Virus record (IMG/VR): IMGVR_UViG_3300045988_151306
Strand: one strand, 5' to 3'
Length of the DNA stretch: 16,477 nucleotides
DNA from: a virus
Position 1 is the first letter of the stretch, and each line of letters begins with the position of its first letter. This document shows, piece after piece, positions 1,874-16,477 of this stretch. The notes below the pieces were generated by a model. The model saw only the letters and a program-made list of their open reading frames with translations, ran no database searches and had not been told where the DNA came from. Made by a program: the position numbers and the translations under genes.

Positions 1874-2443
1874 TTAACCTCTCTCTGTTAGCGATGTATA
1901 AACGGTGTGTTGCAGCTCACGTATTTCGCTTTGCAGCTTTGCGATGTCTGCAGACGGGTCTTTAATCCCGTAATTAGGCGCGGTGTTGTCTATGACTCCT
2001 CGGCCCGATGTGTTGTATTTGAGCAAAAGTCTTCCGTAACTATCGGTGCCGTACACGGCGCCAGTGTCGAACGTGATGTCTGCCCATGAATCCGGCACGT
2101 AAGCGCAGAAACGGCCGTCGGATGTGAGTCCGAAGAAAACCATGTCGGCGAACGTATCCCACAATTGTAGAAGGTTGTCGTTGATCCACTGCTCTATCTG
2201 CGCGGCGTAGTAGTCTTCGAACCCGGACTCCATGAACTTATGCATAAGCTCTTGTAGCTCGGCGATCGCCTTGCTGTTCGCGTTCACCTGCGCGTCAGCC
2301 TCGTCGATGTGTCCGCGCAGGGCCTCGATGATGCAGTACAGATTGGCGATGAGTTGTTCTGGACTTTTGACCTCCCAATACAGCTTAGGAAGCGTCGGAT
2401 TCGTCAACATCCACGGATTAAATGGTGTAAGTGGGTTGTACAT
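1874..2443 (-). CDS. Putative tail fibre / appendage protein
   Basis: 189 aa, ATG at 2443 with GGGAGGTGA RBS. It sits downstream of the portal and collar candidates in phi29-like order. No motif was recognised with certainty. Confidence 0.45.
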   Translation of the reverse strand: MYNPLTPFNPWMLTNPTLPKLYWEVKSPEQLIANLYCIIEALRGHIDEADAQVNANSKAIAELQELMHKFMESGFEDYYAAQIEQWINDNLLQLWDTFADMVFFGLTSDGRFCAYVPDSWADITFDTGAVYGTDSYGRLLLKYNTSGRGVIDNTAPNYGIKDPSADIAKLQSEIRELQHTVYTSLTERG

Positions 2444-2511
2444 ATGCTTTCACCTCCCATCGGTTCCCATCATAGTATACACACTCGCGATCTGCGTCCA
2501 TGCGAGCCTCT

Positions 2512-3060
2512 TTACCACAGCGGTACGGTCGGAACCATAATTCCGGTGAACAGCACGTGCTCCAACTCGTCGAGGATCAATACGTCCACGTCGTTCCACG
2601 TTCGGGCGAATTGCACCGCGAGATTCGCGGCGTTGCCCTCGTGGATAACGTCCGCCTCGCGGTCATTGCCGGTCGATGCATAATCGGAGTTTCCGGAAAG
2701 CATCGTCTCGGGGAAGTCCGAGAAGATATCGCGCGACTTCGAGCGCTCGCGCCCGTCCTGAAACGGATTCACGCCCTGCTCAACGCGTTCATAGAGAAGC
2801 TTGTATTTCGGCATGATCTCGTTGAGCTTGCGCAGATACGCGCGTTTCCAGCGTGAGGGCGTGATGATGGACACCTCGCGGTCGTAGAAGCGGTTTAGGA
2901 ACTTGCGACAAAGCTGCGTGTATTGCAAATCGCTGTAAGCGTCGAAGCGCCAAGAATCATCCTCGAACGGCCGATAGAATCCCATTTCATACCACTCGCC
3001 AAGGGTGATCGTCATACCGTCGTAACGTGCGTTAGTGGGAACATCGGAAAAGTCGAACAT
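2512..3060 (-). CDS. Putative lower collar / tail tube protein (positional analogue of phi29 gp11)
   Basis: 182 aa from ATG at 3060 (MFDFSD...) with RBS GAGAGGAG 6 nt upstream. An alternative in-frame ATG at 3075 would overlap the portal gene. The function call rests on synteny only. Confidence 0.4.
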   Translation of the reverse strand: MFDFSDVPTNARYDGMTITLGEWYEMGFYRPFEDDSWRFDAYSDLQYTQLCRKFLNRFYDREVSIITPSRWKRAYLRKLNEIMPKYKLLYERVEQGVNPFQDGRERSKSRDIFSDFPETMLSGNSDYASTGNDREADVIHEGNAANLAVQFARTWNDVDVLILDELEHVLFTGIMVPTVPLW

Positions 3061-3061
3061 G

Positions 3062-3997
3062 TCAACTCCTCTCAATAAGCGTGTCGTAGCGGTGCCGCAT
3101 GTCGTAATTGTCGGTGATGTTGTCGCGCGCCCACACCACGGTCACAGGTTCCGTCAACCTGCCACCGAATCGCGCATTGAGCTTATCGCACGCGGCTCTG
3201 CGCGTGGTGAGCGGTGAAAGGCGCGCGAGCTCGGTCGGCTGCATGGTCGAGTTTACCTCGTCCTCGATCATGCGCTCTTCCTTGAATGGCATGGAGTCGA
3301 TGCCCAGCTCGCGGTAGATCGCATCCCACGTGTTAGCCCAGTCCTGCTGGAGTTTGTCCCCGATATACTCCTTGGCGCGCTCGGGCATGGTCGCGCTGGT
3401 CTGGATGTCGCTAAAGTTGTCATATGCGAGGACGAAAGGCTCGCCGTTGGCTATGTTCTTGTAGAAGTTCTGCACGTCGAATGCGCGGTCTTGCGGCCCG
3501 GTGATGACCAATGGCATGCGCATGTGATAACGGTTGATCTGCTTCGTGCGCATGATGTCGGTCAGCTCGCGCGCCCATATGTTAATCTTGACCATGAGCG
3601 GGTAGCGCGTCGAATTGTCCCAAATCCATACGCCGTTCGTCCAATTGCATAGAAAATCGGTCTTACCGGTCGCGCCAATCGCGCGCCATGCACGAGGCTC
3701 GTCGTACATGTTCGGCGCGCCCTGCTGCACGCATTTGAGCGATAAAAGCGTATCACTGGTGAGCGACGGATATGCGAGAGTTGCGGCTCCCTCAGTTAAT
3801 AGTACCCATTCCAGATAACGTTCGTTGCACGTCTCGGGGAGTCCCACCCAGCGGAAGCGCGATAGAGCAAGCTCGATAAGGTCGTTTTGGAACATGTTGA
3901 ACAACTGCTGGTTGTACGCTTCGGTTTGCCAGTACGTCGCTTGCTGTCCCGGCCTGAACGGTTTTTTCTGCTTGTAGCCCCTGCGGCCCTTGCTCAT
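3062..3997 (-). CDS. Head-tail connector / portal protein (phi29 gp10-like)
   Basis: 311 aa (phi29 gp10 is 309 aa). By-eye alignment to phi29 gp10: F-R-W-VGLPET vs FEWENLPPT, EERMIEDEVNSTMQPTE vs KKERMVTDEVSSNDEQIE, AACDKLNARFG vs EACEKINELYG. RBS AAGGAGGT lies 6 nt before the ATG at 3997. Confidence 0.85.
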   Translation of the reverse strand: MSKGRRGYKQKKPFRPGQQATYWQTEAYNQQLFNMFQNDLIELALSRFRWVGLPETCNERYLEWVLLTEGAATLAYPSLTSDTLLSLKCVQQGAPNMYDEPRAWRAIGATGKTDFLCNWTNGVWIWDNSTRYPLMVKINIWARELTDIMRTKQINRYHMRMPLVITGPQDRAFDVQNFYKNIANGEPFVLAYDNFSDIQTSATMPERAKEYIGDKLQQDWANTWDAIYRELGIDSMPFKEERMIEDEVNSTMQPTELARLSPLTTRRAACDKLNARFGGRLTEPVTVVWARDNITDNYDMRHRYDTLIERS

Positions 3998-3998
3998 T

Positions 3999-4262
3999 TT
4001 AGACCTCCTTGTAAACGATCTGCGCTTGCAAAGCGGCTTTCATGGATTCTAGCGCGTCGCGCTGCGCGGCTGTCTGCCTCTCTATAAGCGCCGTCATAAG
4101 CGCGTCGTGCGCTTGCGCATCTTTGCCCACGGTGGCCTCGCGTCGCGCGCGCTCGACCTTGTAGGCGATGAGCGCGTCGATCTCCGCGTCGCTCATGTTC
4201 TGGTACGTCCCGGCATTCAACAGTGCGTCGATGTCGGGTTTAGGCTCGATCAAGTCCGGCAT
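3999..4262 (-). CDS. Hypothetical small helical protein between tail knob and portal genes
   Basis: 87 aa, ATG at 4262 with strong RBS AAGGAGG. phi29 has no counterpart at this position. Confidence 0.55.
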   Translation of the reverse strand: MPDLIEPKPDIDALLNAGTYQNMSDAEIDALIAYKVERARREATVGKDAQAHDALMTALIERQTAAQRDALESMKAALQAQIVYKEV

Positions 4263-4271
4263 TTTTCCTCC

Positions 4272-6698
4272 TTAAAAGTTGTCGTAAATGCTAACGCGGC
4301 CTATCTCCTCGGGCTTGTCCCAAACGGTCACGCCCTTAATGAGTATATCCTTTACAGCGGCCTGCGCGCCCTCCACGACGTCACCGGTGCCGCTGCACCA
4401 TACCTCTGTGCATTTCCAATAGGTGAAGTGCCGCATGACCTGCATCCGCTCCATGCTCCACTCGCGCATGAGCGTGTATCCGTAGCGCGCGAAGGCCGAT
4501 GCCGCATTCATGATGTCGCATTCACGTTGCGTGACGATCTGCGCGAACAGCGCGCGCGGTGCGGTCGCGCTCGATCGTCCGTTTGCGCCTACGCCGAACT
4601 GCACCGGCGCCGCGACGCCCGCCTGCTTCAAACCGGCATTGATCGCGTCAATCGCGGTCGCGTACGCGCGCCCCGCATTCGCATCTCCAGTTTCCTTTGA
4701 ACGCCCCGCGTTTGCGTCTCCGGTGGACTTCGAGTTGTCCGCGTTGGTGCGCGTGAGCGTGGCGCTTGCGTTTGCGCTGTATGTGCTTGCGTCGTTGCGT
4801 ATGTTGGTGTTGCTGGTGGCCGTCTCGCTCTGAATGCCGTAAGTGGCCGCGGTGTACTGCATGGCGTGCAATGTCTTTTCAAGTGAGTTGGACTGCGCGA
4901 GCCCTGCGGCTCGAACGTTGCTCGATTGCGAGACCGCCGCAGCTGCGTTTGCAGACGGGAAAGATACTGCCATGTCGGTAACGCCGCTCACGGCTGCGGT
5001 CGTGGCTCCTGCAGCTCCGCCGAAAAGGCCCCCCGTGACCACGCTTCCGATGGTTCGCGCGGCTGCGGTCGCGTTGTTGTTCGCGGTGGTTATCGCGATA
5101 ACGTCGTTCTTGAGGTCCGCCATAGATGTCGATGTCGCGTTGTCGCTGTCGCAGTCTGCTTTCAGTTTTTGATTTGCGGCGGCGGCTCCATTTAAGGCCG
5201 CTGCGTTTGCGTTGGTCGTGATGGAGTTGTTCGCGTTTACGTTCACGCGGTTCACGTCGACGATGTTCGCGGCAACGTTGTTCGCGTTGGTTTGCGCGGT
5301 GGCGTTAGACGCAAGCGCGTTGGTGTACGCGGTCGCGTTAGATGCGAGCGCGGAGGCCTGCGCGTTGTCCGCTGCGAGCTTCGCATGAGCGCGGTTGTAC
5401 ACGGTCGTGTAATCGGCACGGCTCGCCGCGCTCTGCGTGACCTGCATGATGGGGAGGTTCCAGCTCTTAAGGTACTCACCCCAAGCACCGCCGAAGTCGT
5501 ACGTGCGGCCCTCCATCGTCTGAAACGTGAGGGTATCGGTCGCACCGGCGATGTCAAGCAAACGCGCGTCGATGGATATGTAGGGCATGATCAAGTTCAC
5601 GGCGCTCGCGATCTCGATGCCATGCGCGCCCAAGTCCTCCACACGCACGATGGAGGATCGCCCGCGCTCGTCGCTCACGCGGATCGCCGCGTAAGGGTAG
5701 GTATAGAGCTTTGCGAACGGGGCTGCTTGTGTTGGATAGCCGAAATCCGAAATACCCGGCCGCAAAAGCGGCTCGACCTTCTGTACCGCGTCGCACACGG
5801 TGACGGTCACTCCCCACATCGTTAAACCGCCTGACTGCGTGAGCAAGTCGGCGGGCGCGAAGAACACGCCCTGAATGGTCTGTTTGACCCACGGCGCGTT
5901 CTGCTCCATCGCGCGCAGGAACTTCTGCAGATCGCCCACCGCAACGGAATACACGCGAGACGCGAGGATACCCGACGTCTCCGGCTCGGAAAGCGCGGGC
6001 ACGGTCGGTGCGGATGCCGTGCCTAAATCGCCCTGCAGATCGCACGTTGTCGCGATGCACGCGCGCTGGGTCGCGGCGCTGTAATTCTTGACGGCGCGGC
6101 TGCGCTCGATGTAGGGTTCCCCACCGGTGTTCACGTCCGCCGTGAGCAGGTAGGTGGAATTGTCTTTCGGGTCGGCGAGGTAATCGGCGATGGGCGATGC
6201 CGCGACGGGGGCGTGCCCGCGTTCGAGCAGTATGTAATCGAATCGCATGTCATTGATGTAGGTGGTCCACATGTCCAGTTCGAGAACAAGGCGCGTGGAG
6301 TTCGGTGAGAGCTGCTGCGCGTCCAAAATGAAATAGAAGTAACGCGCCTTGCGCTCGCCGCTCGCGTGCTCGATGGGTTGCGCGTCGCTCGTCATGCGCG
6401 GGAGATCGACCACGATGTAATTGTAGACCTGCGCGGATGTCACCGGCACGGGTACCTTGGCGCTTCCATCGGGCTTGACGTTGAACATGGTCTCGAGATT
6501 CACCACGTCACCGGAAAGCGCGTCAAACCACTCATCGCGCTTGGCGTCGTTCTCGAACTTCACGACGTTCTCGTAATCCCCGCACCACGGGACATTGCAC
6601 ATTTTGAGTCGGGCGGTCGGCTTGAACCTCGAATAGTCGAACGTGTTTTCGTATGCGTACACGTCCACGTTTCCGAGATTAGGGAAATCCGCATTCAT
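4272..6698 (-). CDS. Tail knob protein (phi29 gp9-like) with a greatly expanded Ala/Asn/Thr/Ser/Gly-rich low-complexity region
   Basis: Similarity to phi29 gp9: YFYFILDAQ..LVLELDMWTTYINDMRFDYILLERGH vs [35 protein letters not shown], and C-terminal FARYGYTLMR / GVTVWDKPEEIG vs FHKYGYKINR / GITLWHTDNIG. The hydrophobic Gly/Ala loop IGSVVTGGLFGGAAGATTAAVSGV (about 4950..5060) corresponds to the gp9 membrane-active loop. Of two adjacent ATGs (6704, 6698), the second has correct AGGAGG spacing. Confidence 0.85.
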   Translation of the reverse strand: MNADFPNLGNVDVYAYENTFDYSRFKPTARLKMCNVPWCGDYENVVKFENDAKRDEWFDALSGDVVNLETMFNVKPDGSAKVPVPVTSAQVYNYIVVDLPRMTSDAQPIEHASGERKARYFYFILDAQQLSPNSTRLVLELDMWTTYINDMRFDYILLERGHAPVAASPIADYLADPKDNSTYLLTADVNTGGEPYIERSRAVKNYSAATQRACIATTCDLQGDLGTASAPTVPALSEPETSGILASRVYSVAVGDLQKFLRAMEQNAPWVKQTIQGVFFAPADLLTQSGGLTMWGVTVTVCDAVQKVEPLLRPGISDFGYPTQAAPFAKLYTYPYAAIRVSDERGRSSIVRVEDLGAHGIEIASAVNLIMPYISIDARLLDIAGATDTLTFQTMEGRTYDFGGAWGEYLKSWNLPIMQVTQSAASRADYTTVYNRAHAKLAADNAQASALASNATAYTNALASNATAQTNANNVAANIVDVNRVNVNANNSITTNANAAALNGAAAANQKLKADCDSDNATSTSMADLKNDVIAITTANNNATAAARTIGSVVTGGLFGGAAGATTAAVSGVTDMAVSFPSANAAAAVSQSSNVRAAGLAQSNSLEKTLHAMQYTAATYGIQSETATSNTNIRNDASTYSANASATLTRTNADNSKSTGDANAGRSKETGDANAGRAYATAIDAINAGLKQAGVAAPVQFGVGANGRSSATAPRALFAQIVTQRECDIMNAASAFARYGYTLMREWSMERMQVMRHFTYWKCTEVWCSGTGDVVEGAQAAVKDILIKGVTVWDKPEEIGRVSIYDNF

Positions 6699-6710
6699 GA
6701 ACATACCTCC

Positions 6711-6752
6711 TTAACAAAAGCGCCCCCGCTCACGCATGAGCAGGGGCGCGCG
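6711..6752 (-). terminator. Intrinsic terminator immediately downstream of the major capsid gene, abutting the tail-knob RBS
   Basis: Minus-strand RNA: 12-bp GC-rich stem (one G.U) cgccccugcuca-ugcg-ugagcgggggcg followed by cuuuuguuAAGGAGG. Confidence 0.6.
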
Positions 6753-6778
6753 GCCTATGACCGGATTATACACGCATT

Positions 6779-8155
6779 CTATGCGATGGTGATGTCAACG
6801 GTCGCGGTGTACTTGCTCGTCGCGCCGGACGGATTCACGTAAGACGTGGTGCCGGTGACGTGCAGGACGTTGTTCGCCTCCAGATCGGACTTCTGCACGT
6901 GCAGCACGCCCAGACGATCGACGCGCGTCGCGGAGTTGAGCGCAAGCGGTTCGCCCTCGCTCGCCGCGGTCTCGCCTGAAACGCTCCACGTCACCGCGTC
7001 TGGCGCAACCTCGATGCCCTCGTCATTCGCGGTTACGGTGCCGGTGAGCTCCACGGTCATCTGCGTGGACTCGCCCGGCTTAAGGCTGGTCTTGGCAGCG
7101 GTGATGTTCACGCCGGTGACGGACTGCGTGATGGTGGAGACGGTGGTAGGCGCGTCGGTAGTGAACAGGATCGCAGGGACGAACGGGGACGCGCTCACGA
7201 CCTCCCAGTGGTGCAGGTAGTAGTTCGTGCTGAGGGTCTGAGGATTGTAGAAAGACTCGTTCGCGTAGACGTAGTCGTTGCAGACAAAGAAATTATCGGT
7301 GGTGAGCAGGGCGAAGGCGTTGGGGATGGGAAGCTCGGGAACCTCGATGGTGCGGTATGCGGCCTCGGCCTTGTCCAGATTGAACACGCTCGCGAGGGTG
7401 TCGACGTCGATGGAAGCGGCTGCGTCCGCGGTGATGAAAAGCACGAGCTCCTCGGGCTTGGCGAAGGTGGGAATGCCGTACTCGGCGGACACGGGGGAGT
7501 AAAGCGACGTCGGGAACTTAAGCTTCTTGGCGTAGGCGCGAACCGCCTTCAGGAACTCCTTACCGGTCGCCTCGTCGGTCGGGGCGGCGCTCACCTGATG
7601 CTTGTAGAAACCCCAGTTCCGCTCGTAATATGCGAGCTGGTTGAGCATGCACAGGTACTCGTCGTAATTGTCTGAATTGCGCGGAGCGGTCATGATCGCG
7701 TCGATGAGGCGGTTCAGGCCCATCTCGTCGGCGAAAGCCTGCTGCAGATCGGGGAGCTCGACGCTGATGTCGTAACGGTCCTTGCGGTTGACGGTGTGAT
7801 ACCACACTGCGGCCTCGGGGCGGCTCACCTTAAGCAGCGTTGCATCGTCCACGTCGTAGGTGTGCGCCTTGATCCACTTGAGCGCGGACTCCTGAATGGC
7901 CGAACCGTAGCGGAGATTTGCGCCCTTGAAGACGGTGAGCGGATTCTCCCACTGGTTGTTATGCACGATCTGCGTGCCGATGCGATTGACGAAAGCGTCC
8001 ACGAACTCGTTCAGATAACGTCGGTTCATGGGGTCGAAAAGAAACTTGCTGGTCGCGTCGATGCCCTCGATGGTCGGGTTCGGCACGCGCTGCTGAAAAT
8101 CGTTGGTGCCGGAAAGGTACACGCGGCCCGCGATGGTGGTGTTGTTGGTTGCCAT
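6779..8155 (-). CDS. Major capsid protein (phi29 gp8-like) with C-terminal BIG2 Ig-like domain
   Basis: 458 aa (phi29 gp8 is about 448 aa). Matches to gp8: [10 protein letters not shown] vs [26 protein letters not shown] vs [35 protein letters not shown] vs [31 protein letters not shown] vs YWNYYYHVWQTLS. The C-terminus [27 protein letters not shown]...VTWSVSG is a Big_2-type fold. RBS AAGGAGGG is present. Confidence 0.85.
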   Translation of the reverse strand: [458 protein letters not shown]

Positions 8156-8169
8156 GTAAAGTTCCCTCC

Positions 8170-8472
8170 TTAAAGGTCAAGGTCAAGCTCGTCGTAATCG
8201 GGGATGACCGCCACGTCGTCCTCGATGATGTCAGCATCCCCATCACCGTCAACATCGCGCACGCTCGCTCCGTTGTCGATGTCGATTGCCTCGGCGGTTG
8301 TTCGCATTGCGGTGAGCATGTCGGTGATGCCCTGCAACATCCCTTCCATGCGCTCTAGCCGGTCGCGCAAATCGTCGAACTCGCCAATGCGGTGGGCTTC
8401 CTCGCCGTCAACGCCTGCGGTCCGCTCGATCTCCTGCTCATCCGGGGCCAGATTGTCATTCTGCTCGTCCAT
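8170..8472 (-). CDS. Head scaffolding protein (phi29 gp7-like)
   Basis: 100 aa from ATG at 8472 (RBS AAAGGAG). Highly acidic and helical, immediately upstream of the capsid gene (gp7 is 98 aa). The ORF-track start at 8592 lacks an RBS and would consume the regulatory gap. Confidence 0.65.
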   Translation of the reverse strand: MDEQNDNLAPDEQEIERTAGVDGEEAHRIGEFDDLRDRLERMEGMLQGITDMLTAMRTTAEAIDIDNGASVRDVDGDGDADIIEDDVAVIPDYDELDLDL

Positions 8473-8684
8473 GCGCTTACTCCTTTCGTGTATATAAGTT
8501 GAGCGCGACCACGCGAGGTTGTTACCTGCGTAGTCGCGCTCATTATAACGCATGGCGAAGCTGAGGCACGTTCCATTGAAACACGTAGCCAACTCGCGCG
8601 GGGTTCGGGTACCGACTGAACGGTACAGCTTCCCGAATCATCCCTACTCACGGATTTTCGTGCTCGCCGTCGCTCGCGTCACAT
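8473..8684 (-). promoter_or_regulatory. 212-nt non-coding region between the packaging ATPase and scaffold genes: late-promoter candidate (-10 TATAAT at 8542..8547, weak -35) followed by a 10-bp-arm inverted repeat (8500..8509 / 8533..8542). Also a candidate locus for a packaging RNA
   Basis: No ORF with an RBS. A perfect TATAAT on the minus strand directly abuts tgagcgcgac...gtcgcgctca. A second hairpin gtaccg-ttcagt-cggtac lies at about 8600..8620. The position is equivalent to the phi29 late A3 promoter upstream of gene 7. Confidence 0.4.
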
Positions 8685-9755
8685 TTACTTTACCCCATAC
8701 AAAGCCATCGCGTCTAGGAAACCTTCGCGCACCTTCACACTCTCAAAAAGCACGCTCCCCTCGTAATACATCTGAACGATCACCCTAAGCGTCTTGCTAA
8801 CCCGCTGCGCTGCGATGCGGTTTGGGGTGTTGTCCTTGCGCGTTAGCGCGTACACGTTACCCGCGTTATTTGGTATCTTTCCGGTGACGTGGTAGTACCC
8901 TTCGGAAATGTCAATCCAGATTCCGTACTCCGTTCCCATATGAACGCACCCCATGACGTACTTCGCGCGCGGGGGCTTCTTGGCGATGTAACGGTTATCC
9001 TCGGCGAAGTCGTTCGCGTAGGTTGCTTTTGCGTAACCGGTCACCCGCCCCATTCGACCCGCAAGGGTGTGCTCCATGCGGTAAGCATCGTGCTCGTCGG
9101 ACTCAACGATGTGCAACAGGCACATCTTGTCGAGATACCACGTGTACCCGAATTTAGGTACGCCAGTCACACCAAACGCGGCGAAATAAGGATTAATCAA
9201 GTCAACTGCGTTGCCCAACAAGAACAGACGCGGCTTCACGCGATTCTCGTTATAGGCGTCCTCGCGCGCCAAAGAATCGATCATGCGGCTCAACGTATTC
9301 CATTCATCGCGCTTGTACTGATGTGAGCTGTCGATTTTTTCCATAATGGCCTCGTCGAAAATAATATTCTCGACGTTTACGAACGTGCTTTTTTTCGCTC
9401 GCTGCAATTCGGCGAAACCGACTATGTAACCACACGTCTTCCACGGCGTGCCCTTCTTCGAGTTCTTCGGGCGGTATTTGAACTCGTCCGCCTTGCACAT
9501 ATATTCATAGGCGCTAAATTCATCATCCGTGGCGATGAGCTTGTCAAAATAACTATGCTTCACCGCGTCGCGCTCGTTTAAAGTGCGGCACACCTCCACG
9601 AACCTCTGATCTTTCTTGATCGCGCGGTTGAGCGCATAGGCGCGAAGTCCGTATGTCTTTCCCTTGTTCGGCGCGCCGACGACCATAGTGATGTCTGCGT
9701 TGTAGGAAAGCGTTTTTTCCCAGTTGTAATGCACGCCGTCATTAAGATTTACCAT
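8685..9755 (-). CDS. DNA packaging ATPase (phi29 gp16-like encapsidation protein)
   Basis: 356 aa. Walker A is GAPNKGKT and Walker B is ENIIFDEA. Matches to gp16: KTLSYNADITMVVGAPNKGKTYGLRAYALNRAIK vs KMLSYDRILNFVIGARGIGKSYAMKVYPINRFIK, and LLGNAVDLINPYFAAFGV vs CLSNAVSVVNPYFLFFNL. The start overlaps the pol stop (ATGA-type coupling). Confidence 0.85.
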   Translation of the reverse strand: MVNLNDGVHYNWEKTLSYNADITMVVGAPNKGKTYGLRAYALNRAIKKDQRFVEVCRTLNERDAVKHSYFDKLIATDDEFSAYEYMCKADEFKYRPKNSKKGTPWKTCGYIVGFAELQRAKKSTFVNVENIIFDEAIMEKIDSSHQYKRDEWNTLSRMIDSLAREDAYNENRVKPRLFLLGNAVDLINPYFAAFGVTGVPKFGYTWYLDKMCLLHIVESDEHDAYRMEHTLAGRMGRVTGYAKATYANDFAEDNRYIAKKPPRAKYVMGCVHMGTEYGIWIDISEGYYHVTGKIPNNAGNVYALTRKDNTPNRIAAQRVSKTLRVIVQMYYEGSVLFESVKVREGFLDAMALYGVK

Positions 9756-12250
9756 TGCGCTTCATTCCCTTCATCGTCTATATACGTGTAGGTCGCCCGA
9801 TCGTCCTCAATATCTATTACGCGCTCTGTGGTGTCAACCGCGCGCCCGTACCGCTCTCGCATGTACGCGATGGTGCGGGCGTTGCCACCCTTATCCGCGT
9901 CTCCCAACAAGCGCTCGGACGGATACAGCGCGATTGACTCGTGCGTATGCACGTGGGACGTTTGCCCCGTGTAGTCGGTTATGTCCATGTCCAGCACGTC
10001 CGCCGCTGCCGGACGGTAATGCTCCAATGCATGGCAAACCGGTTGCGAGACGCGAACGCCCCATCCCAACACGCGTGGGGCCACCTCCTCGAATCCATGC
10101 ACCGCGCTCATGTCATCAATCCAATTCTCGATGTGATACATACCCGTCGGTCGCGATAGGCCCGCGCATGTGATGTGCGCGTGATGCCCGTCCCAGCTCA
10201 CGCGCGCCTTGTTCCAAGCGTCCATGTGCATGGGGTACGCCTCGCCCTCGACCTCGAATGTGCCAACTCCGGTGAGCGGTGAGGCGTAATCGGGGAAGTT
10301 CTTGCGCACGCGGCTCATGCATAGGTCGATTGATGCCGTCACCGCCTCGTGAAACGGAGCTAGTGCCCGCATGAGATCGCTTGCAGAAACATCTGCATCG
10401 CATGAGATTTTAAGTGAATCGGTGTCACCTCCCAGCACGCGCACGCGCTCGCCGAACGACTTATATACAAGCTCGATTGCCGCGACGATCGCCATGCGGG
10501 AACCTCCGACGATGCGAAGGCCGTAAGGATATAGAACGAGCTTCTTCTTAGCGTCCTCATAATGCTCCTTATATGTCTCGCGTGTTACGATCGTGTCACG
10601 ATCAACGCATATCTCACCAGCATCGACCTTGTATGCGCATTTGAACACGTCTTGCGCCTCCATTCCGTAAATCGAATTAAACATTCCCTTGACGGTGGAA
10701 TTGTAATAGGCCTCGAGGTCTGCGCGTTCCATCGCACCGCTGCGGATGCGCTCGGCGATTCCCTCGGGGATGCTGCCTGGTATCTCGCGCGTGTACGGCT
10801 CTCCCGTCTCGTATGTCTTAAGGATCTGCTTGCAAGCGTCCTTGCGCGCATAGAACAGATTAGACAACAACGTCACGTAGTCCGGCGGCTTAACGAAGCT
10901 CATTGTCCCCTCGCCTAAAATTACCTCCATCGCATCCCAGGCATACACGCGGCTCATGCACCACAGCTCCAGCTCAGAGACGTTCACGATGCACGACGCG
11001 GCTTGAACGAGCTTGCCGAACGCGAAGCGGCCGTTTTCGGCCACGTCCACGTACCCGGCACTGCGAACCGCCGTCACGGTGTCGCGGTCCGCCTCGCCTC
11101 CCCACTCGCCCAGCTGTCCGGAGCCCTTGAACTTCGCTTCGGATAGCAACGCGATGTCCCAGGACTCGAACGCGCTCCCCTCACGCAAGCGGAGGTTCTT
11201 GAACCTGATTTGCGCGTGGAACGCGTACCCGAAAGGCTCTTCCCAGTGCCGCATCGCCTGATCTAAATCAGTGCTGCAAACGCCCTCGGCCATCGCCTGC
11301 AGGATGCTCGGGAGGACGCCGCGAAAATTAACCGGCTGCATGTGGCCGTTGATGTAAGCATGGTGAGCGGACGTCTCGTCGATGCTGTAAACGTTTTTCT
11401 GCACGATGCCGGAATACCGCGCGGAGGTGAACGTGAAGCCTCCCCTGAAACACGCCTTACGCAGTGCGTATTGCGCGTAAGTCGGGGCGAGTTCCTCGGC
11501 ACACATGCGCTCGAACGCCGCTTGCACTGAGATCGGTTTGCCTTTTTCGCGCGGGATGCGCAGACGGCCAGTCTCCATCTTGCCCGCCTGACGCACAAGT
11601 GATGTCTTGGTCAGCACGCGCACGCCAAGCCATTCAGGCTTCAACCATTCATTCGATTCCAACAGATAACGCAGGTAAGCCGGAATCACCTCGGTGTCTC
11701 GACCTGCGTAATAAAGCTCCTCGTCGGTCAGCGGGGTTTCCGGAGTGCGAACCTTCGAGTAATCCCAATCACCAACGGCCTTCGGCAAACCGCACGTTTC
11801 TCCCATCTTCGCAAGTCCGCGCATCTCAAGATAAAAGGTGTCCCAGAACCGCAACTTGACCGCGCCGTCCTGCACGATGTCAACGGTGTATGCGCTCGTC
11901 GCGCTCTGCGCGCTCGCGACCATGTCCCAGCGCTCGTTAAGCTCGTACATGAGCGGTTGGAGGTCGAACATTAAGTTATAGGCGCATATGACCGGAATGC
12001 AATGCTCGTCTTCGCCCCACGTTATGTAATCGTCTATGACACGCTGCATGTCCTCGCCGTGCCGGTAAAACGACACGCGCCCCGAGCCCACCTCATATGT
12101 GCGCAGATCGCAACCGCGAACGTCATTCACGATGTAAAGCACCGGGTAGGCGCGCCACTGGTTCTCACGCTCGTCAATGCAGACGTTGCACGTCTCGGTG
12201 TCATACGCGGCTGCGATCTTGAATTGCGGTTTACGTTCCTTACACCCCAT
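9749..12250 (-). CDS. Protein-primed family-B DNA polymerase
   Basis: 833 aa. Exo I is YDTETCN, Kx3NSxYG is KGMFNSIYG, motif C is LGGDTDS. The size and inserted regions fit protein-primed PolB. It lies downstream of and translationally close to the terminal-protein candidate. Confidence 0.9.
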   Translation of the reverse strand: MGCKERKPQFKIAAAYDTETCNVCIDERENQWRAYPVLYIVNDVRGCDLRTYEVGSGRVSFYRHGEDMQRVIDDYITWGEDEHCIPVICAYNLMFDLQPLMYELNERWDMVASAQSATSAYTVDIVQDGAVKLRFWDTFYLEMRGLAKMGETCGLPKAVGDWDYSKVRTPETPLTDEELYYAGRDTEVIPAYLRYLLESNEWLKPEWLGVRVLTKTSLVRQAGKMETGRLRIPREKGKPISVQAAFERMCAEELAPTYAQYALRKACFRGGFTFTSARYSGIVQKNVYSIDETSAHHAYINGHMQPVNFRGVLPSILQAMAEGVCSTDLDQAMRHWEEPFGYAFHAQIRFKNLRLREGSAFESWDIALLSEAKFKGSGQLGEWGGEADRDTVTAVRSAGYVDVAENGRFAFGKLVQAASCIVNVSELELWCMSRVYAWDAMEVILGEGTMSFVKPPDYVTLLSNLFYARKDACKQILKTYETGEPYTREIPGSIPEGIAERIRSGAMERADLEAYYNSTVKGMFNSIYGMEAQDVFKCAYKVDAGEICVDRDTIVTRETYKEHYEDAKKKLVLYPYGLRIVGGSRMAIVAAIELVYKSFGERVRVLGGDTDSLKISCDADVSASDLMRALAPFHEAVTASIDLCMSRVRKNFPDYASPLTGVGTFEVEGEAYPMHMDAWNKARVSWDGHHAHITCAGLSRPTGMYHIENWIDDMSAVHGFEEVAPRVLGWGVRVSQPVCHALEHYRPAAADVLDMDITDYTGQTSHVHTHESIALYPSERLLGDADKGGNARTIAYMRERYGRAVDTTERVIDIEDDRATYTYIDDEGNEAQW

Positions 12251-12266
12251 GACCCTTTACCTTTGG

Positions 12267-12920
12267 CTACCCGAACATGACGACCCTTGATGCCCATATA
12301 GGCGAACCGATCAACTCAGCGTCGTATTCGACCTCGGAATAAAACGCCTCGTTCTCGTCGGTAAAACCCTCGACCTCGGAGGTCGGAACGCCTGATGCGA
12401 TCGCGGCTTTAAATGCCCGTTCGTTCGCGCGTAGAACCTTCTCAAACGCCTCGGAAAGCGATGACGCGCCTAAACCACGCATAATCAATCGGTTGCGCTC
12501 CTTAGGGTCTTTGCCGCGCCAATATCGACGCGTGGCCGCGTAAAAGACGTCAACGGCCTCCTTGCCGTGATCACCGAGTGTGCTTGGAGCTCCGATGCGC
12601 GCAAGATTGATTTGACGCTGAAAAAGCATGTCGGAACGCTCGCGCGAACTCTTGACCTTGCGAGGCGCGGAGGTCATGCGATCTAGTCGCTCGCCCGCGC
12701 TCTTCGCGCGTTTCTGCGCGCGCCGAACCTCCCGCACGTCTCGTGTGCCCTGATACGACTGTGTTATCTGCGCGCGCACGCTCTCCATGTAATCAGCTCT
12801 CGCGCGTTTCTGTGCGGTGCTCATACCGCTCACATCCTCGCGCTCCATGCGTGCCAGCAAACGCTTTGCGCGCCTGCGTGCGTTGTAAATCTCGTCCGAT
12901 GCGCGTTTAGCACGTGCCAT
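12267..12920 (-). CDS. Terminal protein (TP) candidate
   Basis: 217 aa from ATG at 12920 (MARAKRAS..., RBS GGAGG 8 nt upstream). The ORF-track extension to 12983 runs through a terminator hairpin. Very basic N-terminal half and acidic, Ser-containing C-terminus (EVEGFTDENEAFYSEVEYD) as in phi29 TP. It sits immediately upstream of pol as phi29 genes 3 and 2 do. Confidence 0.55.
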   Translation of the reverse strand: MARAKRASDEIYNARRRAKRLLARMEREDVSGMSTAQKRARADYMESVRAQITQSYQGTRDVREVRRAQKRAKSAGERLDRMTSAPRKVKSSRERSDMLFQRQINLARIGAPSTLGDHGKEAVDVFYAATRRYWRGKDPKERNRLIMRGLGASSLSEAFEKVLRANERAFKAAIASGVPTSEVEGFTDENEAFYSEVEYDAELIGSPIWASRVVMFG

Positions 12921-12930
12921 ATGCAATCCT

Positions 12931-12969
12931 CCAAAAGAAAAAAGGCGATGCGGTTTGAACCGCACCGCC
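12931..12969 (-). terminator. Intrinsic terminator between the SSB and TP genes, U-tract running into the TP RBS
   Basis: Minus-strand RNA ggcggugcgg-uucaaa-ccgcaucgcc (10-bp stem, one G.U) followed by uuuuuucuuuuGGAGGauugcaAUG. Confidence 0.6.
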
Positions 12970-13008
12970 AAAACGTAACGCAACGGGATTGAGGTTTGAA
13001 GACTTGAC

Positions 13009-13422
13009 TTAAATCAATACGAGCGTCTTGCGAGAGTTGCCATTCGGGAGCGTGGAAGAAACGAGCTTCATAGGAACGATCTCGCCATCATCGAACAAAC
13101 CCGCTGCCATGAAGTTATCAGCTGCGTTGCGAACGCCCTCGGACTGCGAGAAATAGGCGGAACCATCGGCGCACACGATGGTGGTGTTCGTGCAAAGGGT
13201 GTCGATGCCGTTCTTGTCACGAGCGCGACGCACGCCCGGCTTGGTGAAAACGCCGATGACGTTAAGCGTCTCGCCCTCATGGTTGGAAAGCGACTCGGCG
13301 TTGTTCATGGCGTTGACCACGAGCTTGCGAGTCTCAGCGTCTGCGGGCTTGATTGAGGAATAGTTAGAAGGCGCGTACAAATCAGTGGAATCGACGGTTG
13401 CGAGTTGGTTGGTATCAGTCAT
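13009..13422 (-). CDS. Single-stranded DNA-binding protein (phi29 p5-like)
   Basis: 137 aa. TTIVCADGSAYFSQSEGVRNAADNFMAAGL resembles phi29 p5 TTIFAADGSLYSAISKTVAEAASDLIDL, and the C-terminal KLVSSTLPNGNSRKTLVL resembles p5 KVKVVQGTSSKGNVFFSL. This is from memory of the p5 sequence. Confidence 0.5.
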   Translation of the reverse strand: MTDTNQLATVDSTDLYAPSNYSSIKPADAETRKLVVNAMNNAESLSNHEGETLNVIGVFTKPGVRRARDKNGIDTLCTNTTIVCADGSAYFSQSEGVRNAADNFMAAGLFDDGEIVPMKLVSSTLPNGNSRKTLVLI

Positions 13423-13436
13423 GGTTGGTTTCCTTT

Positions 13437-13748
13437 CTAGAAGTCATTGACTTGTTTACCGTATGCGAGATTAATCTCACTTTTGCTGTTCTTGTAATCA
13501 ATTGCCGTTTGGACGAAAAGTTTCAGCGGAATGGAATAGTAATCAGAATCGACTTCAACGCTTGTGATTACAATTGAATTGTCATGCGTCCTGCGTCGCA
13601 ACGTGTTCGTTGCTTTTTGGACGTTGGAGTAATCGCCGATTAGCTCGAACTCAAAATCGACTAACTCGCCGGATTCCACGCGCTTACCCTTGCAATGGGA
13701 AAACGCGACGGTGCGGCCTATCATCCCACGTTCTAGTTTCTTTGGCAT
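13437..13748 (-). CDS. Hypothetical protein, AT-rich moron-like gene with its own promoter
   Basis: 103 aa from ATG at 13748 (MPKKLERG..., RBS GGGAAAGGGGG). Local GC is clearly lower than the flanking genes. No recognisable motif. Confidence 0.55.
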   Translation of the reverse strand: MPKKLERGMIGRTVAFSHCKGKRVESGELVDFEFELIGDYSNVQKATNTLRRRTHDNSIVITSVEVDSDYYSIPLKLFVQTAIDYKNSKSEINLAYGKQVNDF

Positions 13749-13782
13749 AAAATACACCCCCTTTCCCGTTGCTGTGATTAAC

Positions 13783-13812
13783 AGTATAGGTAATGGGGGC
13801 GTTTCATGTCAA
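13783..13812 (-). promoter_or_regulatory. Near-consensus sigma70-type promoter (-35 TTGACA at 13807..13812, 18-nt spacer, -10 TATACT at 13783..13788) driving the 103-aa gene
   Basis: Minus-strand sequence TTGACAtgaaacgcccccattaccTATACT lies in the 72-nt gap between the endolysin stop and the next RBS. Confidence 0.55.
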
Positions 13813-13830
13813 CAGCCAAAGCGATGATTT

Positions 13831-14499
13831 TTAATAATACGTGATGATTGGCTTGTAACCCTTCGAGCGGAGCTCACCGGCGAACTTCTCCGCGTTGGAC
13901 TTGATCGAGAACGCGCCCAACTGGACGCGGTAGAGCTTGCCCGGAGTGCTCGGGGCATCGGGCGTCTCGGGAGCGATGACGTTCGCGCCGATGCCAGCGG
14001 CTTGCAGGATACCGCGCGCCAGATCGTCCATCTGATTCATGAACTTTGCGCGATCACCGTCATTGGAGATGAAACCGCATTCAAGAAGCCGGTAATTCAC
14101 GCCCGCGCTCGCGGCTCGGTTCGGATTCGCCAAATCGGAACGGCCCACGATCGTGGAGGAACGCCCGGGAAAAAACGAAACGATGAAAGAGGCAAGAGCC
14201 TTATCGAACGCATCCGGGCTAAATCCCTTCTTGATGATGACGTGACCACCGCGCGCGGATGGTGCCGCGCTATCCATGTGAAGCTCAAGCACCATCGCGC
14301 CCTTGGGACACTGACCCTTGCCGATGCCGTTGGACTCATACCAATTAACGTCCATGTCGCCGATTTGAACATCGGAGGTGCCCAGATCTTTGATGCGCGC
14401 GGCGAGCTTGCGCACCAACGCGGCCTCGGTCTGACCTCCAGCGCACGCGCCTGAGTCTCCGGCTCCATGGCCGCAGATGATAAATAGCTTACAACTCAC
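13831..14499 (-). CDS. Endolysin: N-acetylmuramoyl-L-alanine amidase (Amidase_3) with C-terminal SPOR domain (CwlC-like)
   Basis: 222 aa. Amidase_3 signature ICGHGAGDSGA...E...LHMDS...RLLECGFISN. C-terminal SPOR-like segment YRVQLGAFSIKSNAEKFAGELRSKGYKPIITY. The start overlaps the holin stop. Confidence 0.8.
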   Translation of the reverse strand: MSCKLFIICGHGAGDSGACAGGQTEAALVRKLAARIKDLGTSDVQIGDMDVNWYESNGIGKGQCPKGAMVLELHMDSAAPSARGGHVIIKKGFSPDAFDKALASFIVSFFPGRSSTIVGRSDLANPNRAASAGVNYRLLECGFISNDGDRAKFMNQMDDLARGILQAAGIGANVIAPETPDAPSTPGKLYRVQLGAFSIKSNAEKFAGELRSKGYKPIITYY

Positions 14500-14681
14500 G
14501 CTTGCACCTCCGGGGCAATCGAATCCAGCTTCTCGGCGAGCTTGGTCATGATAAGGGTGTTCTCCTCGATGGTCTTGCGCATGTCTTCAATGGTCTTCGT
14601 GCTCGAATAAAACATCATAACAAACGCCGCGATGGGGAATGCCACGTTGCTCACCAACTCCGTAATCGCACTAATGTCCAT
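14496..14681 (-). CDS. Holin, BhlA/UviB family-like
   Basis: 61 aa from ATG at 14681 (MDISAITELVSNVAFPIAAFVMMFYSS...) with RBS GAAGGGAG. It has one N-terminal TM segment followed by a charged coiled-coil tail, like UviB/BhlA. It overlaps the endolysin start by 4 nt. Confidence 0.6.
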   Translation of the reverse strand: MDISAITELVSNVAFPIAAFVMMFYSSTKTIEDMRKTIEENTLIMTKLAEKLDSIAPEVQA

Positions 14682-14696
14682 GTACTTTCTCCCTTC

Positions 14697-14736
14697 AAAG
14701 AAAAACAGGGTTGCGTCACTTTTAACGCAACCCCTT
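14697..14736 (-). terminator. Intrinsic terminator downstream of the 142-aa gene, U-tract abutting the holin RBS
   Basis: Minus-strand RNA ggguugcgu-uaaaagug-acgcaaccc then uguuuuucuuuGAAGGGAGaaaguacAUG. Confidence 0.55.
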
Positions 14737-14739
14737 GCC

Positions 14740-15168
14740 CTAGGAAAGATTATACACACGTTTGCGTCGGTCGCGCTCGCGCTTCAATTTGATTAACGCT
14801 TGCTCGTACCTGCGCCGTGCAAGTTTGAATTGATGAGCTCCGTGCCGCTCGCCCGTTGCCCATCGCGCTGCTGCGAACACACGCATAATCTCGGCCTTGT
14901 ACGTGTAGAACTTGATGAGTTCCGCGATGCCCTCATCAGGCCAGATGCGCAGGACGTTGCAATCGAGGTGCGTCACCTGCTCGGGCTTCACACGGGTGGG
15001 GTCGAACGCGCACATATGCGCGCATTGCAGCTCGCGCTCGCGCTTTAAAACGTGCTCGACGTTAACCAAATAAGGGTACAAGTCCGGATATACAGACTTG
15101 GCAATGTGCATGACCCAATCGCGGCGCACCGGAGTTGAGTTCTTCACAAGCCATGTAGAGACTTTCAC
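14740..15168 (-). CDS. Hypothetical protein with basic C-terminal tail (KLKRERDRRKR). Possible nucleic-acid-binding early protein
   Basis: 142 aa. GTG start at 15168 preceded by AAGGAA at 6-nt spacing. The in-frame TAA of the upstream gene is 4 codons before. Confidence 0.5.
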   Translation of the reverse strand: MKVSTWLVKNSTPVRRDWVMHIAKSVYPDLYPYLVNVEHVLKRERELQCAHMCAFDPTRVKPEQVTHLDCNVLRIWPDEGIAELIKFYTYKAEIMRVFAAARWATGERHGAHQFKLARRRYEQALIKLKRERDRRKRVYNLS

Positions 15169-15180
15169 GCGATGTTCCTT

Positions 15181-15414
15181 TTACACCAAATCGGGAATGA
15201 CCCCGAGCCGAAAGTAAATGTTGCAGAAAAGAACGATGCATATGAGAACGACGATTATTAGAGCGGATGTTAGGACGTAGAGCCAATTAGTCAGATGTTC
15301 GTTGAGCTCATATTGACGTTGCATCTTACTAGCTAAAACATGGTCAACTCTCACGACCATCTTGTAACACTGTTTAAGTGGTAGGCACTTCATATCCTTT
15401 TCAGTGTAAACCAT
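15181..15414 (-). CDS. Small membrane protein (single C-terminal TM segment), AT-rich
   Basis: 77 aa, RBS GGGGAAA. Hydrophobic stretch LYVLTSALIIVVLICIVLFC. GC is well below the genome core. Confidence 0.5.
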   Translation of the reverse strand: MVYTEKDMKCLPLKQCYKMVVRVDHVLASKMQRQYELNEHLTNWLYVLTSALIIVVLICIVLFCNIYFRLGVIPDLV

Positions 15415-15436
15415 ATTGTTTCCCCTTTCCCTTTAT

Positions 15437-15898
15437 TTAACGACTTATACACCCCTGAACTGCACTGGTGATGATTATAGGATCGCGTGAAGTTTCGATT
15501 GTGGACGTAATTATAAGCGGTGCTACGCGCTTGCTGCCCTTGCCATGGTGAAACTGCATATTCTTTGACCCCAACACCCTATGAGGTCGCATCGCGAGCG
15601 CGATACAAGCAGGGTCGTAGTAAGGAGGCATGCCGGAGAAATTGCGATCGTCAGGATCATAATCAAGGATTGCATTGAAGGTGCGCGCGCGATCCATGTA
15701 TGCGATTGAATGGCCGAAAAGCGCTTTGAAGATGCTGCCCGGTTGGTACAGGCCCTCGATTCGATGCATGACGTATGTATTAGTTACGTAAATTACCCGA
15801 TTATGAACGCACACGCAATCAAATGGCGCGTGCGTCCCAGGCTTGCATGTGCACGCACATAAGGCGCGCCATAGAGCATTTGTCTCGGTCTTGTTCAT
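15437..15898 (-). CDS. Hypothetical Cys/His-rich protein (first gene of the right-end leftward operon)
   Basis: 153 aa from ATG at 15898 (MNKTETNALW..., RBS AAAGGGGAG). Cys cluster CACTCKPGTHAPFDCVCVH. No confident family assignment. Confidence 0.5.
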   Translation of the reverse strand: MNKTETNALWRALCACTCKPGTHAPFDCVCVHNRVIYVTNTYVMHRIEGLYQPGSIFKALFGHSIAYMDRARTFNAILDYDPDDRNFSGMPPYYDPACIALAMRPHRVLGSKNMQFHHGKGSKRVAPLIITSTIETSRDPIIITSAVQGCISR

Positions 15899-15933
15899 GT
15901 GCTCCCCTTTCATGGAGTTGGTACGTGGTTATT

Positions 15934-16027: not shown

Positions 16028-16396
16028 ATGATCGTTTACGAGTACACCAAGGATTGCGGTGATGAGACTCACACCGCGAACATTTACATCAATCGCGGTC
16101 ATATCTGGGTTTCCATCCAGGCCGCAAACAAAAGTTACGAGTACGACGTTAACACGCTTGAGGCAGCAACCGATCTTGTATTCAAGTACGGATTTGTTGA
16201 AGCTGATGGACCTATCGAGGTGATTGAAAAAATGACTACCTATAAGCAGTTCGACGTGCGCTATTTTGACTTCGCATACAACAACGAGCGCACGCGTACG
16301 TTCTCCGATCTCTCCGACGCGATGGAGTTCATGGAGTGGATCGTGTTGTGTCGTAAGCATCAGATGCGCTTCATTGCGCTCGAAAGTGTATACTAA
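16028..16396 (+). CDS. Hypothetical acidic protein, the only plus-strand gene, transcribed toward the right terminus
   Basis: 122 aa. RBS GGAAGGAG 7 nt before the ATG. The stop is 27 nt before the right ITR. GC is lower than the core. Confidence 0.6.
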   Translation: MIVYEYTKDCGDETHTANIYINRGHIWVSIQAANKSYEYDVNTLEAATDLVFKYGFVEADGPIEVIEKMTTYKQFDVRYFDFAYNNERTRTFSDLSDAMEFMEWIVLCRKHQMRFIALESVY

Positions 16397-16422
16397 GCCT
16401 CGCGCCCTCGTGCGCACCCCAT

Positions 16423-16477
16423 TCCCAACCCCGCGTGCCTGGACTCGGCTAGATCAGGTGCGCGGGGTTTCTTTGTG
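16423..16477. repeat. Right inverted terminal repeat (ITR), 55 bp
   Basis: Reverse complement of 16423..16477 is identical to 1..55. The window therefore appears to span a whole linear replicon. Confidence 0.9.

Follow-up and report, generated by a model that had tools for sequence, protein, structure and literature searches.

In phi29 the early and late genes lie in divergent blocks, the genes for the packaging ATPase (gp16) and for lysis stand at the end of the late operon, and the prohead RNA (pRNA) of the DNA-packaging motor is encoded at the genome's left end. The phi29 pRNA is 174 nt long, and its domain I is followed by an A/U-rich linker and a terminator hairpin (domain II); its Rfam family, RF00044, covers phi29, PZA, M2/Nf, B103, SF5 and GA-1. 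Reviews describe pRNA as unique to phi29 and its Bacillus relatives (PMC11476376, PMC5066667), and the literature that we searched reports none outside Bacillus phages; for Cp-1 there are predictions, and the Av-1 record carries one as an annotation. Here we describe a 16,477 bp stretch of viral DNA, IMG/VR record IMGVR_UViG_3300045988_151306 (the window, by which we mean the whole stretch), which is likely a nearly complete linear genome of an uncultivated phi29-like phage, and in which a structured 132-nt RNA encoded after the ATPase gene is likely the pRNA of the clade.

Unlike the phi29 pRNA, which is encoded at a genome end, this RNA is flanked by the ATPase and scaffold genes and encoded on the main coding strand. 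The first-pass annotation had begun the scaffold open reading frame (ORF) at 8592, too far upstream, so that it overlies the RNA; the start conserved among relatives is the ATG at 8472, and with this correction 212 noncoding nucleotides separate the ATPase stop (8685) from the scaffold ATG. The features around the RNA, in the direction of transcription, are as follows.

8685-9755, minus strand: gp16-type DNA packaging ATPase (PF05894, 4.1e-36, profile positions 4-320 of 331; phrog_2150, 1.4e-54)
8687-8692, minus strand: -10-like box TAAAGT that overlaps the stop codon of the ATPase gene and stands 7 nt ahead of the RNA's closing helix; part of a predicted promoter, its GTA-AAR-stop being kept in close relatives
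8548-8679, minus strand: candidate prohead (packaging) RNA, domain I, 132 nt, recognised by fold, covariation, phi29-like topology and a chain of covariance models
8501-8547, minus strand: 41-nt hairpin (8541-8501) with compensatory changes, preceded by TATAAT (8547-8542), which is invariant across 50 of 50 sequences; the scaffold ribosome-binding site (RBS) comes next
8170-8472, minus strand: putative scaffold protein, 100 aa and very acidic, named from position, size and composition; its start after the RBS GAAAGGAG is conserved

The 212-nt gap is noncoding, in that insertions and deletions among relatives break the reading frame, and it folds with a minimum free energy (MFE) of -87.4 kcal/mol (z=-4.25), a stability reached by none of 200 shuffled sequences. 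An RNAalifold consensus of the window and 49 close relatives contains 54 base pairs, of which 24 show compensatory changes and almost none is broken. When the pairs of the named structure were counted over the 30 distinct sequences, 97.8% of the cells were paired, against 31-43% when the partners were slid by 1-3 columns, and 20 pairs had changed on both sides, against 1-7 in the slid controls; the observed pairing values were attained in none of 500 shuffles.

Domain I of this RNA has its 5' and 3' ends paired in a long helix, and a second helix runs on from there as far as a three-way junction. Of the two arms, the first has a 5' bulge loop and beyond it a hairpin of 5 bp with the 6-nt loop UUCAGU, and the second is a hairpin, likewise of 5 bp, whose 9-nt loop is complementary to the bulge loop. 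These elements follow one another as in domain I of the phi29 pRNA (A helix, C helix, CE bulge loop, E hairpin with a 6-nt loop, D hairpin), and the secondary-structure features that define that domain are present, namely the A helix, the three-way junction, the C/E arm with its 5' bulge loop and the D hairpin. Both RNAs have the closing helix, the junction, the arms and the loop complementarity in common, and the A/U-rich linker and terminator hairpin with which the phi29 pRNA continues are likewise found in the RNAs of the clade. They differ in length, domain I being 132 nt in the window and about 117 nt in phi29, with an extra helix segment below the junction in the window.

A relative of a sister lineage, L081 (relatives are given L numbers here), provides a link in primary sequence. 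Its RNA contains GGAUUAAGCCCUGAUUGAUUUCAGC, which is identical at 24 of 25 positions to GGAUUAAACCCUGAUUGAGUUCAGC of the phi29 pRNA, in the CE-loop and E-hairpin segment, and the MFE bracket strings of the two RNAs can be superposed, showing the same topology. A pattern of 22 specified bases drawn on this segment occurs in only four of 2.9 million IMG/VR contigs, L081's own contig among them. RF00044 is also the top Rfam match on the L081 region, at a sub-threshold 16.3 bits against a gathering score of 100 (E=0.66 over 4227 families). In every lineage tabulated the bulge loop and the hairpin loop are complementary over 3-6 bp, the two sequences change in step, and the register is that of phi29:

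phi29: bulge loop AACC, hairpin loop GGUU
L081: bulge loop AGCC, hairpin loop GGCU
window: bulge loop AGCU, hairpin loop GGCU
L002: bulge loop UGCU, hairpin loop GGCA
L004: bulge loop GCUA, hairpin loop UAGC
L017: bulge loop GUCG, hairpin loop UGAC
L058: bulge loop UACCC, hairpin loop GGGUA
L050: bulge loop UUCCA, hairpin loop UGGAA
OP549880.1: bulge loop GGAAA, hairpin loop UUUCC

The phage that encodes the RNA also encodes a gp16-type ATPase, matched over the full length of the profile, and a gp10-type connector. The portal carries a basic N-terminal tail, MSKGRRGYKQKKPFRP, which we take to recall the RNA-binding N-terminus of phi29 gp10.

The same RNA is found in other lineages. It could not be aligned across lineages with MAFFT, and the first covariance model was too narrow; both difficulties were solved by models seeded only from the window clade and iterated through cmsearch alignments (R1, R2 and R3). 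R1 reaches L080 (2.6e-5) and R2 reaches L083 and L051 (about 1e-4), and with R3 the RNAs of L081 and L082 are matched over their full length (1.3e-4), together with those of L087 (2.6e-4) and L058 (6e-16). A homologous RNA lies just 5' of the scaffold gene in L050, L081, L082, L085 and L083, in L080, where an extra ORF stands between it and the ATPase gene, and in a clade of relatives with about 52% capsid identity, where it has covariation of its own. In the L114 clade, again just 5' of the scaffold gene, it forms 62 pairs with 14 compensatory, and independent covariation was thus found in two clades besides that of the window. An RNA of this kind was not found in CI461P1, phiYS61, Astrid or Phanie.

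The vaginal metagenome-assembled genome (MAG) OP549880.1 (L001) has the RNA at 14849-14968, on the minus strand and upstream of the scaffold gene, with the ATPase gene on the other strand. An annotated 36-aa 'hypothetical protein' (14856-14966) overlaps the RNA there and is probably not a gene; this annotation and the over-long scaffold ORF of the window, both lying over the RNA, call for correction. Since the RNA stands 5' of the scaffold gene even in OP549880.1 and L083, in which the ATPase gene is on the strand opposite to the structural block, it travels with the structural operon, and it is between the ATPase gene and the RNA that the two arrangements have their breakpoint.

A -10-like box lies 4-8 nt ahead of the closing helix of the RNA in every lineage, from which we infer that the RNA has a promoter of its own. 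The box reads TAAAGT or TAAAAT in the window clade, where it is formed by the last two ATPase codons and the stop, and GATAAT or TATAAT in the L051 clade; OP549880.1 has an extended -10, TGATATAAT. Over the window as a whole, promoter-like and terminator-like sites are no more numerous than in shuffled sequences, so only the sites conserved in relatives carry weight. Beyond the predicted 3' end of domain I, the segment 8547-8501 may be the linker and domain II, or terminator, as in the 174-nt phi29 pRNA, or it may be a late promoter followed by a 5' stem-loop. We also note that TATAAT stands directly upstream of a hairpin at two junctions of the window, at 8547-8542 on the way from the ATPase gene and the RNA to the scaffold gene and at 6770-6765 between the capsid and tail genes. 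These boxes could be promoters, pause elements or processing sites. We considered that the box at 8547-8542 might be a late promoter whose transcripts start inside the next hairpin and so escape it; the box before the post-capsid terminator stands at a distance that disallows such an escape.

We read the 132-nt RNA as a homologue of pRNA encoded at the head of what would be the late operon, a reading drawn from comparison of sequences and predicted folds. Several results weigh against it. The window RNA was not detected with RF00044, at E<=1 over the whole window or at E<=10 with the region alone, and the R3 covariance model fails to reach the phi29 pRNA itself. The loop-loop pairing of the largest sub-clade is only 3 bp, including a G-U, and in several lineages the complementarity is not individually significant against shuffles. 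The two parts so paired could equally form an intramolecular pseudoknot, and the RNA sits where the leader of a late operon would be expected, followed by a hairpin or terminator, a position that fits a cis-regulatory role. Other Rfam families gave only chance-level matches among those listed for the window and the gap.

The main rival is accordingly that the RNA acts in cis as a leader of the late scaffold-capsid operon. It would then be a put-like antiterminator, an attenuator or a 5' structure that stabilises the mRNA, and would control read-through of the following hairpin or terminator. Its constant place immediately 5' of the scaffold gene, wherever the ATPase gene may be, would suit a leader, and so would the succession of a hairpin, with a clear U-run in L050, L051, L114 and L001, and the scaffold RBS, which leaves little or no room for a further promoter; but the phi29 pRNA is itself a domain I followed by an A/U-rich linker and a terminator hairpin. 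There are parallels in the similar pairing of TATAAT and terminator after the capsid gene and in Av-1 (L067), where a promoter, a leader and a strong terminator likewise precede the first late gene. Against these stand the agreement with the phi29 pRNA element by element and the sister lineage that keeps 24 of 25 nucleotides of the pRNA segment in contact with the prohead, and we consider a purely regulatory leader unlikely, though well worth keeping in mind. The packaging and regulatory roles are compatible and could coexist.

Two other places where a pRNA might be sought were folded. The fold of the 'packaging RNA' in the Av-1 annotation is no better than those of shuffled sequences (z=+0.5), and the gap between the polymerase and scaffold genes of BadAargau2 has an unremarkable fold (z=-1.0). 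The region before the first late gene of Av-1, with its leader and strong terminator, folds strongly (z=-4.1); the Av-1 regions folded were 4471-4611 and 16295-16402.

Under the pRNA reading, and by analogy with phi29, the RNA would sit as a ring on the portal's basic N-termini and dock the ATPase when DNA is packaged, and the two detachable parts of the motor, ATPase and RNA, would be neighbours in the genome where the prohead genes begin. That a large human-associated phi29-like clade, with members of 34-57% GC, has the RNA at 8679-8548 as its working prohead RNA seems to us somewhat more probable than the alternatives taken together.

The rest of the genome is arranged around this junction. 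Along the minus strand the order is accessory genes, holin, endolysin, p6-like protein, single-stranded DNA-binding protein (SSB), putative terminal protein (TP), family B DNA polymerase, gp16-type ATPase, scaffold, capsid, tail knob, portal, collar and fibres; 19 of the 20 ORFs are on this strand, the exception being 16028-16396. The features outside the ATPase-scaffold region are listed here in the same direction.

16423-16477: right inverted terminal repeat (ITR), inner part only, a perfect inverted repeat of 1-55
16028-16396, plus strand: 122-aa gene with no family match, the sole plus-strand gene, transcribed toward the terminus
15961-15934, minus strand: promoter-like site before the accessory genes, from a sequence scan
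14740-15913, minus strand: three accessory genes (158, 77 and 142 aa), with no PHROG or Pfam match
14734-14707, minus strand: terminator-like hairpin just upstream of the holin gene, from a sequence scan, counted among the conserved elements of this strand
14496-14684, minus strand: holin, 62 aa from the ATG at 14684 (phrog_4898, 6.2e-10)
13831-14499, minus strand: endolysin with Amidase_3 and SPOR domains, by profile matches
13783-13812, minus strand: promoter-like TTGACA-18-TATACT before the replication genes; 47 of 62 relatives have TTGACN-N16-19-TANNNT upstream of their p6-like gene
13437-13757, minus strand: possible p6-like dsDNA-binding protein, 106 aa (phrog_6370, a weak match at E=1.4e-3), placed as gene 6 in the phi29 early operon
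13009-13422, minus strand: SSB of the phi29 p5 type (PF17427, 5e-6; phrog_6243, 1.4e-7)
12944-12969, minus strand: intrinsic-terminator-like hairpin between the SSB and TP genes, found also in relatives of two clades
12267-12920, minus strand: putative TP, 217 aa from the ATG at 12920, from its position directly upstream of the polymerase, its basic N-terminus and the ITRs
9749-12250, minus strand: protein-primed family B DNA polymerase, 833 aa (phrog_1907, 3e-22)
6779-8155, minus strand: major capsid protein of the phi29 type with an Ig-like domain (PF25622, 8.3e-84, above the curated cut-off, and Big_2)
6720-6770, minus strand: TATAAT (6770-6765) and a strong terminator hairpin (6749-6720) after the capsid gene, conserved in relatives
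4272-6704, minus strand: tail knob-type protein, 810 aa (phrog_2248 'tail protein', 1.3e-34; tblastn matches to the tail genes of Av-1 and BadAargau2)
3999-4262, minus strand: small conserved gene, 87 aa, between the tail and portal genes, present in relatives
3062-3997, minus strand: portal or upper collar protein of the gp10 type, with the basic N-terminal tail given above (PF05352, 3.3e-24)
2512-3075, minus strand: lower collar protein (phrog_5472, 2.3e-6, weaker than the portal match)
208-2443, minus strand: three distal tail or fibre genes (189, 79 and 470 aa), the 470-aa fibre protein (1620-208) having a GDSL/SGNH hydrolase domain
1-55: left ITR, inner part only, a perfect 55-nt inverted repeat with 16423-16477

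Profile searches thus uphold the gene order proposed in the first-pass annotation, together with most of its gene names, those for TP and scaffold resting on position, size and composition; the extent given there, 8170-15898, was too short, the ordered set running from 208 to 15913. The set of hallmark proteins defined for phi29-related phages, p2, p8, p9, p10, p11 and p16 (PMC11476376), is complete in the window, with polymerase, capsid, tail knob, connector, collar and ATPase all matched.

The polymerase is recognised by its motifs (DxE, NxxxFD, YxxxD, KxxxNSxYG and DTDS), and a profile of the lineage's polymerases matches the phi29 polymerase structure 1XHX at 1.3e-63; as a single sequence the window polymerase finds no match in the PDB. 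At 833 aa it is longer than the 575 aa of phi29; it has sequence inserted around profile positions 304-374 and 468-511, and roughly 200 aa at its C-terminus remain unaligned with the phi29 polymerase. The two names given by position found no support in homology searches. The TP candidate shows no homology to the phi29 TP, to PDB chains or to the Astrid gene upstream of the polymerase gene, and the only resemblance among the sequences compared is a non-significant one over seven N-terminal residues (MARAKRA and MARSPRI); the scaffold candidate has no detectable homology to phi29 gp7, with a negative hhalign result. The p6-like match, if real, means that the replication block p6-SSB-TP-polymerase is ordered internally as in phi29.

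With 55-nt ITRs at its ends and nearly all genes on the minus strand, the window is probably an essentially whole linear genome. Terminal repeats of 55 nt also end several relatives (the ends of L002, L003, L028, L044, L049 and L051 were compared), and the exact figure looks like an assembler k-mer overlap. Other relatives have ITRs of 138-488 nt, or extend about 110-135 nt beyond the window ends to a common terminus beginning ACATATTGC. Given a repeat of exactly 55 nt and the longer termini of these relatives, the outer 100-135 nt or so of each ITR are probably missing from the window. One contig end of L003 carries Illumina Nextera adaptor sequence. Homologues of the 122-aa terminal gene are found at either genome end in relatives (at the right ends in L004-L016, L044, L046 and L049), always pointing outward, and this switching of ends looks as if terminal segments were exchanged via the ITRs. 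Within the fibre region, two direct repeats of 142 nt, 89% identical, encode a repeated motif of the fibre protein (1053-1350), and repeats of about 59 nt lie inside the 79-aa coiled-coil gene (1679-1809).

With its ITRs and putative TP the phage would replicate by protein priming. Compared with phi29, which shares p2, p5, p8, p9, p10, p11 and p16 and the combination of ITRs with a TP, both blocks of the phi29 plan would keep their internal order (p6-like, SSB, TP, polymerase; scaffold, capsid, tail knob, portal, lower collar, fibres); they are joined head to tail on a single strand. The gp16-type ATPase gene is fused onto the end of the replication block, its start overlapping the end of the polymerase gene by 7 nt, and the lysis cassette lies upstream of the replication genes. 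Three departures from phi29 that had been pointed out earlier are therefore real: early and late genes are co-directional, the ATPase gene lies between the polymerase and scaffold genes, and the lysis genes precede the replication genes.

The proposal that this is a distinct lineage holds good relative to all cultured or classified phages. Of the annotated phages, OP549880.1 (Bacteriophage sp. UC074V2_C064) is the closest record, with 41-48% protein identity (capsid 48%, polymerase 44%, ATPase 41%, portal 41%). It resembles the window in a TP-polymerase-ATPase block with overlapping genes, in the order of its structural genes and in the RNA upstream of the scaffold gene, but its structural block is on the opposite strand, convergent with the polymerase and ATPase genes, and its GC content is much lower. 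The nearest isolates by capsid are actinobacterial phi29-like phages, at 30-38% identity, no isolate exceeding 38%. The shared proteome and gene order of the phi29-group phages of Salasmaviridae are not seen in the window: there is no nucleotide match, only three of the 20 proteins are found in phi29 (tblastn, 25-28% identity), and the order is different.

Judged by protein similarity, the genome is a mosaic, its structural proteins being nearest to those of actinobacterial phages and its polymerase nearest elsewhere. After the vaginal MAG, the polymerase is closest to those of the Astrithrvirus type, from small phages of Gram-negative hosts (Phanie, Astrid and Vibrio K58), and the polymerases of the actinobacterial phages and Cp-1 were not detected with it by tblastn. 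Against one genome per species the lysin gave only weak or partial matches, at no more than 28% identity over the catalytic domain; in a large protein search, catalytic domains 70-76% identical to it were found on large contigs together with SH3_3, CW_7, PG_binding_1 or SLH domains. The hints as to the host would therefore seem to conflict, the structural proteins pointing to Actinobacteria and the lysin domain to prophages of a Firmicutes type.

The first-pass annotation had further taken the layout to be an unusual, lineage-specific rearrangement marking a novel kind of pico-podovirus. Speaking for this, megablast of the window against 50,697 phage records gave no match, only 2-7 of the 20 proteins are detectable in any one reference genome (19-48% identity), and among the ten annotated reference genomes that we examined, from nine isolates and one MAG, none showed a lysis cassette upstream of the replication genes. 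But a capsid-based scan of IMG/VR returned 63 genomes, 48 with 75-96% capsid identity and 15 with about 52%, and order and strands are identical to those of the window in all 63. More lineages, with the order SSB-TP-polymerase-ATPase-scaffold-capsid-tail-portal-collar-fibre and GC contents of 0.34-0.57, came from scans that started from two distant relatives. The protein clusters at 90% identity that hold window proteins have 151 (polymerase), 628 (capsid) and 17 members (ATPase), and among them are GenBank Third Party Annotation (TPA) entries titled 'MAG TPA ... Bacteriophage sp.', with DAM24533.1 and DAJ72723.1 alongside the window polymerase and capsid.

Every feature of the layout save the position of the lysis genes is moreover annotated in cultured phages. 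In the annotations of Weissella phiYS61, Salmonella Astrid, Acinetobacter Phanie and Clostridium CI461P1 the ATPase gene comes directly after that for the polymerase and before the capsid gene; all four have a TP or TP-like gene, polymerase and ATPase upstream of the capsid genes on one strand, and in Astrid and Phanie the polymerase and ATPase genes overlap as in the window. These phages differ from it in protein identity, which is at most 28% for CI461P1, phiYS61 and Astrithrvirus, and in arrangement, as in Astrithrvirus the portal gene precedes the capsid gene and in CI461P1 three genes lie between ATPase and scaffold. The actinobacterial phages (Actinomyces Av-1, Curtobacterium, Arthrobacter and Glutamicibacter phages and Bifidobacterium BadAargau2) and Streptococcus Cp-1 run, like the window, almost in one direction from replication to morphogenesis, the replication genes preceding the structural genes in Cp-1, Av-1 and BadAargau2, but have their ATPase and lysis genes after the tail genes, as in phi29. 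Frequent rearrangement of gene order is also reported in a 2024 review covering more than 2000 phi29-related sequences (PMC11476376).

The position of the lysis cassette varies within the clade itself: the groups of the window, L051 and L114 have it on the left, and in the group of L050, L080 and L087 it follows the fibre genes. The window type of lysin is absent from all 63 IMG/VR relatives, in which other lysins occupy the same position, and is present on other contigs of about 16 kb in the large protein search. Endolysins are thus swapped at a fixed site; in L002 the gene at 1919-2839 encodes, as read from its sequence, a 306-aa enzyme with two C-terminal repeats, and the 288-aa lysin of L051 (2288-3154) has a GH25-like appearance. 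The ATPase gene moves as well, being on the strand opposite to the structural block in OP549880.1 and L083, and in OP549880.1, a complete record, the whole TP-polymerase-ATPase block is inverted. We also note a tRNA gene (Rfam tRNA, 61.7 bits) near the left end of the same-layout relative L114, at 470-542.

With at least 63 public genomes and several sister lineages sharing the order, we find it improbable that the layout marks a novel kind of phage; relatives with the same layout were public already, which largely refutes that view. High GC had been offered as a further sign of a separate lineage, and the window has a GC content of 55.6%, reaching about 60% in mid-genome and lower toward both ends; the same layout spans 34% to 57% GC, however, so that high GC is no lineage marker. 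That the contig is chimeric or misassembled and the gene order an artefact, which an ITR of exactly 55 nt like a k-mer overlap and the incomplete termini might suggest, deserves next to no credence, as genes adjoin or overlap all along it without breaks and identical order in 63 independent contigs, drawn from several IMG/VR sample identifiers and including those with 75-96% capsid identity, rules out chance and misassembly. The layout is the standard one of a large human-associated phage clade that is present in public catalogues and so far uncharacterised. By itself, then, the gene order adds little beyond documenting a common but uncharacterised clade of small gut phages, with the ATPase gene and the lysis cassette as mobile pieces of the phi29 plan.

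More would follow from the RNA. Why a DNA-packaging motor needs an RNA is an open question, and a divergent natural family of pRNAs, with dozens of sequences and clear covariation, would show which parts of the RNA are constrained. Such a family would also give a search model for pRNAs in other phi29-related lineages and offer new self-assembling three-way-junction scaffolds for RNA nanotechnology. If the pRNA reading is right, the RNA would be the first element of the late operon, and a unit of promoter, RNA and terminator could both supply the motor RNA and gate the transcription of the prohead genes. The motor RNA would then be ancestral or widespread among phi29-related phages, and no peculiarity of those that infect Bacillus.

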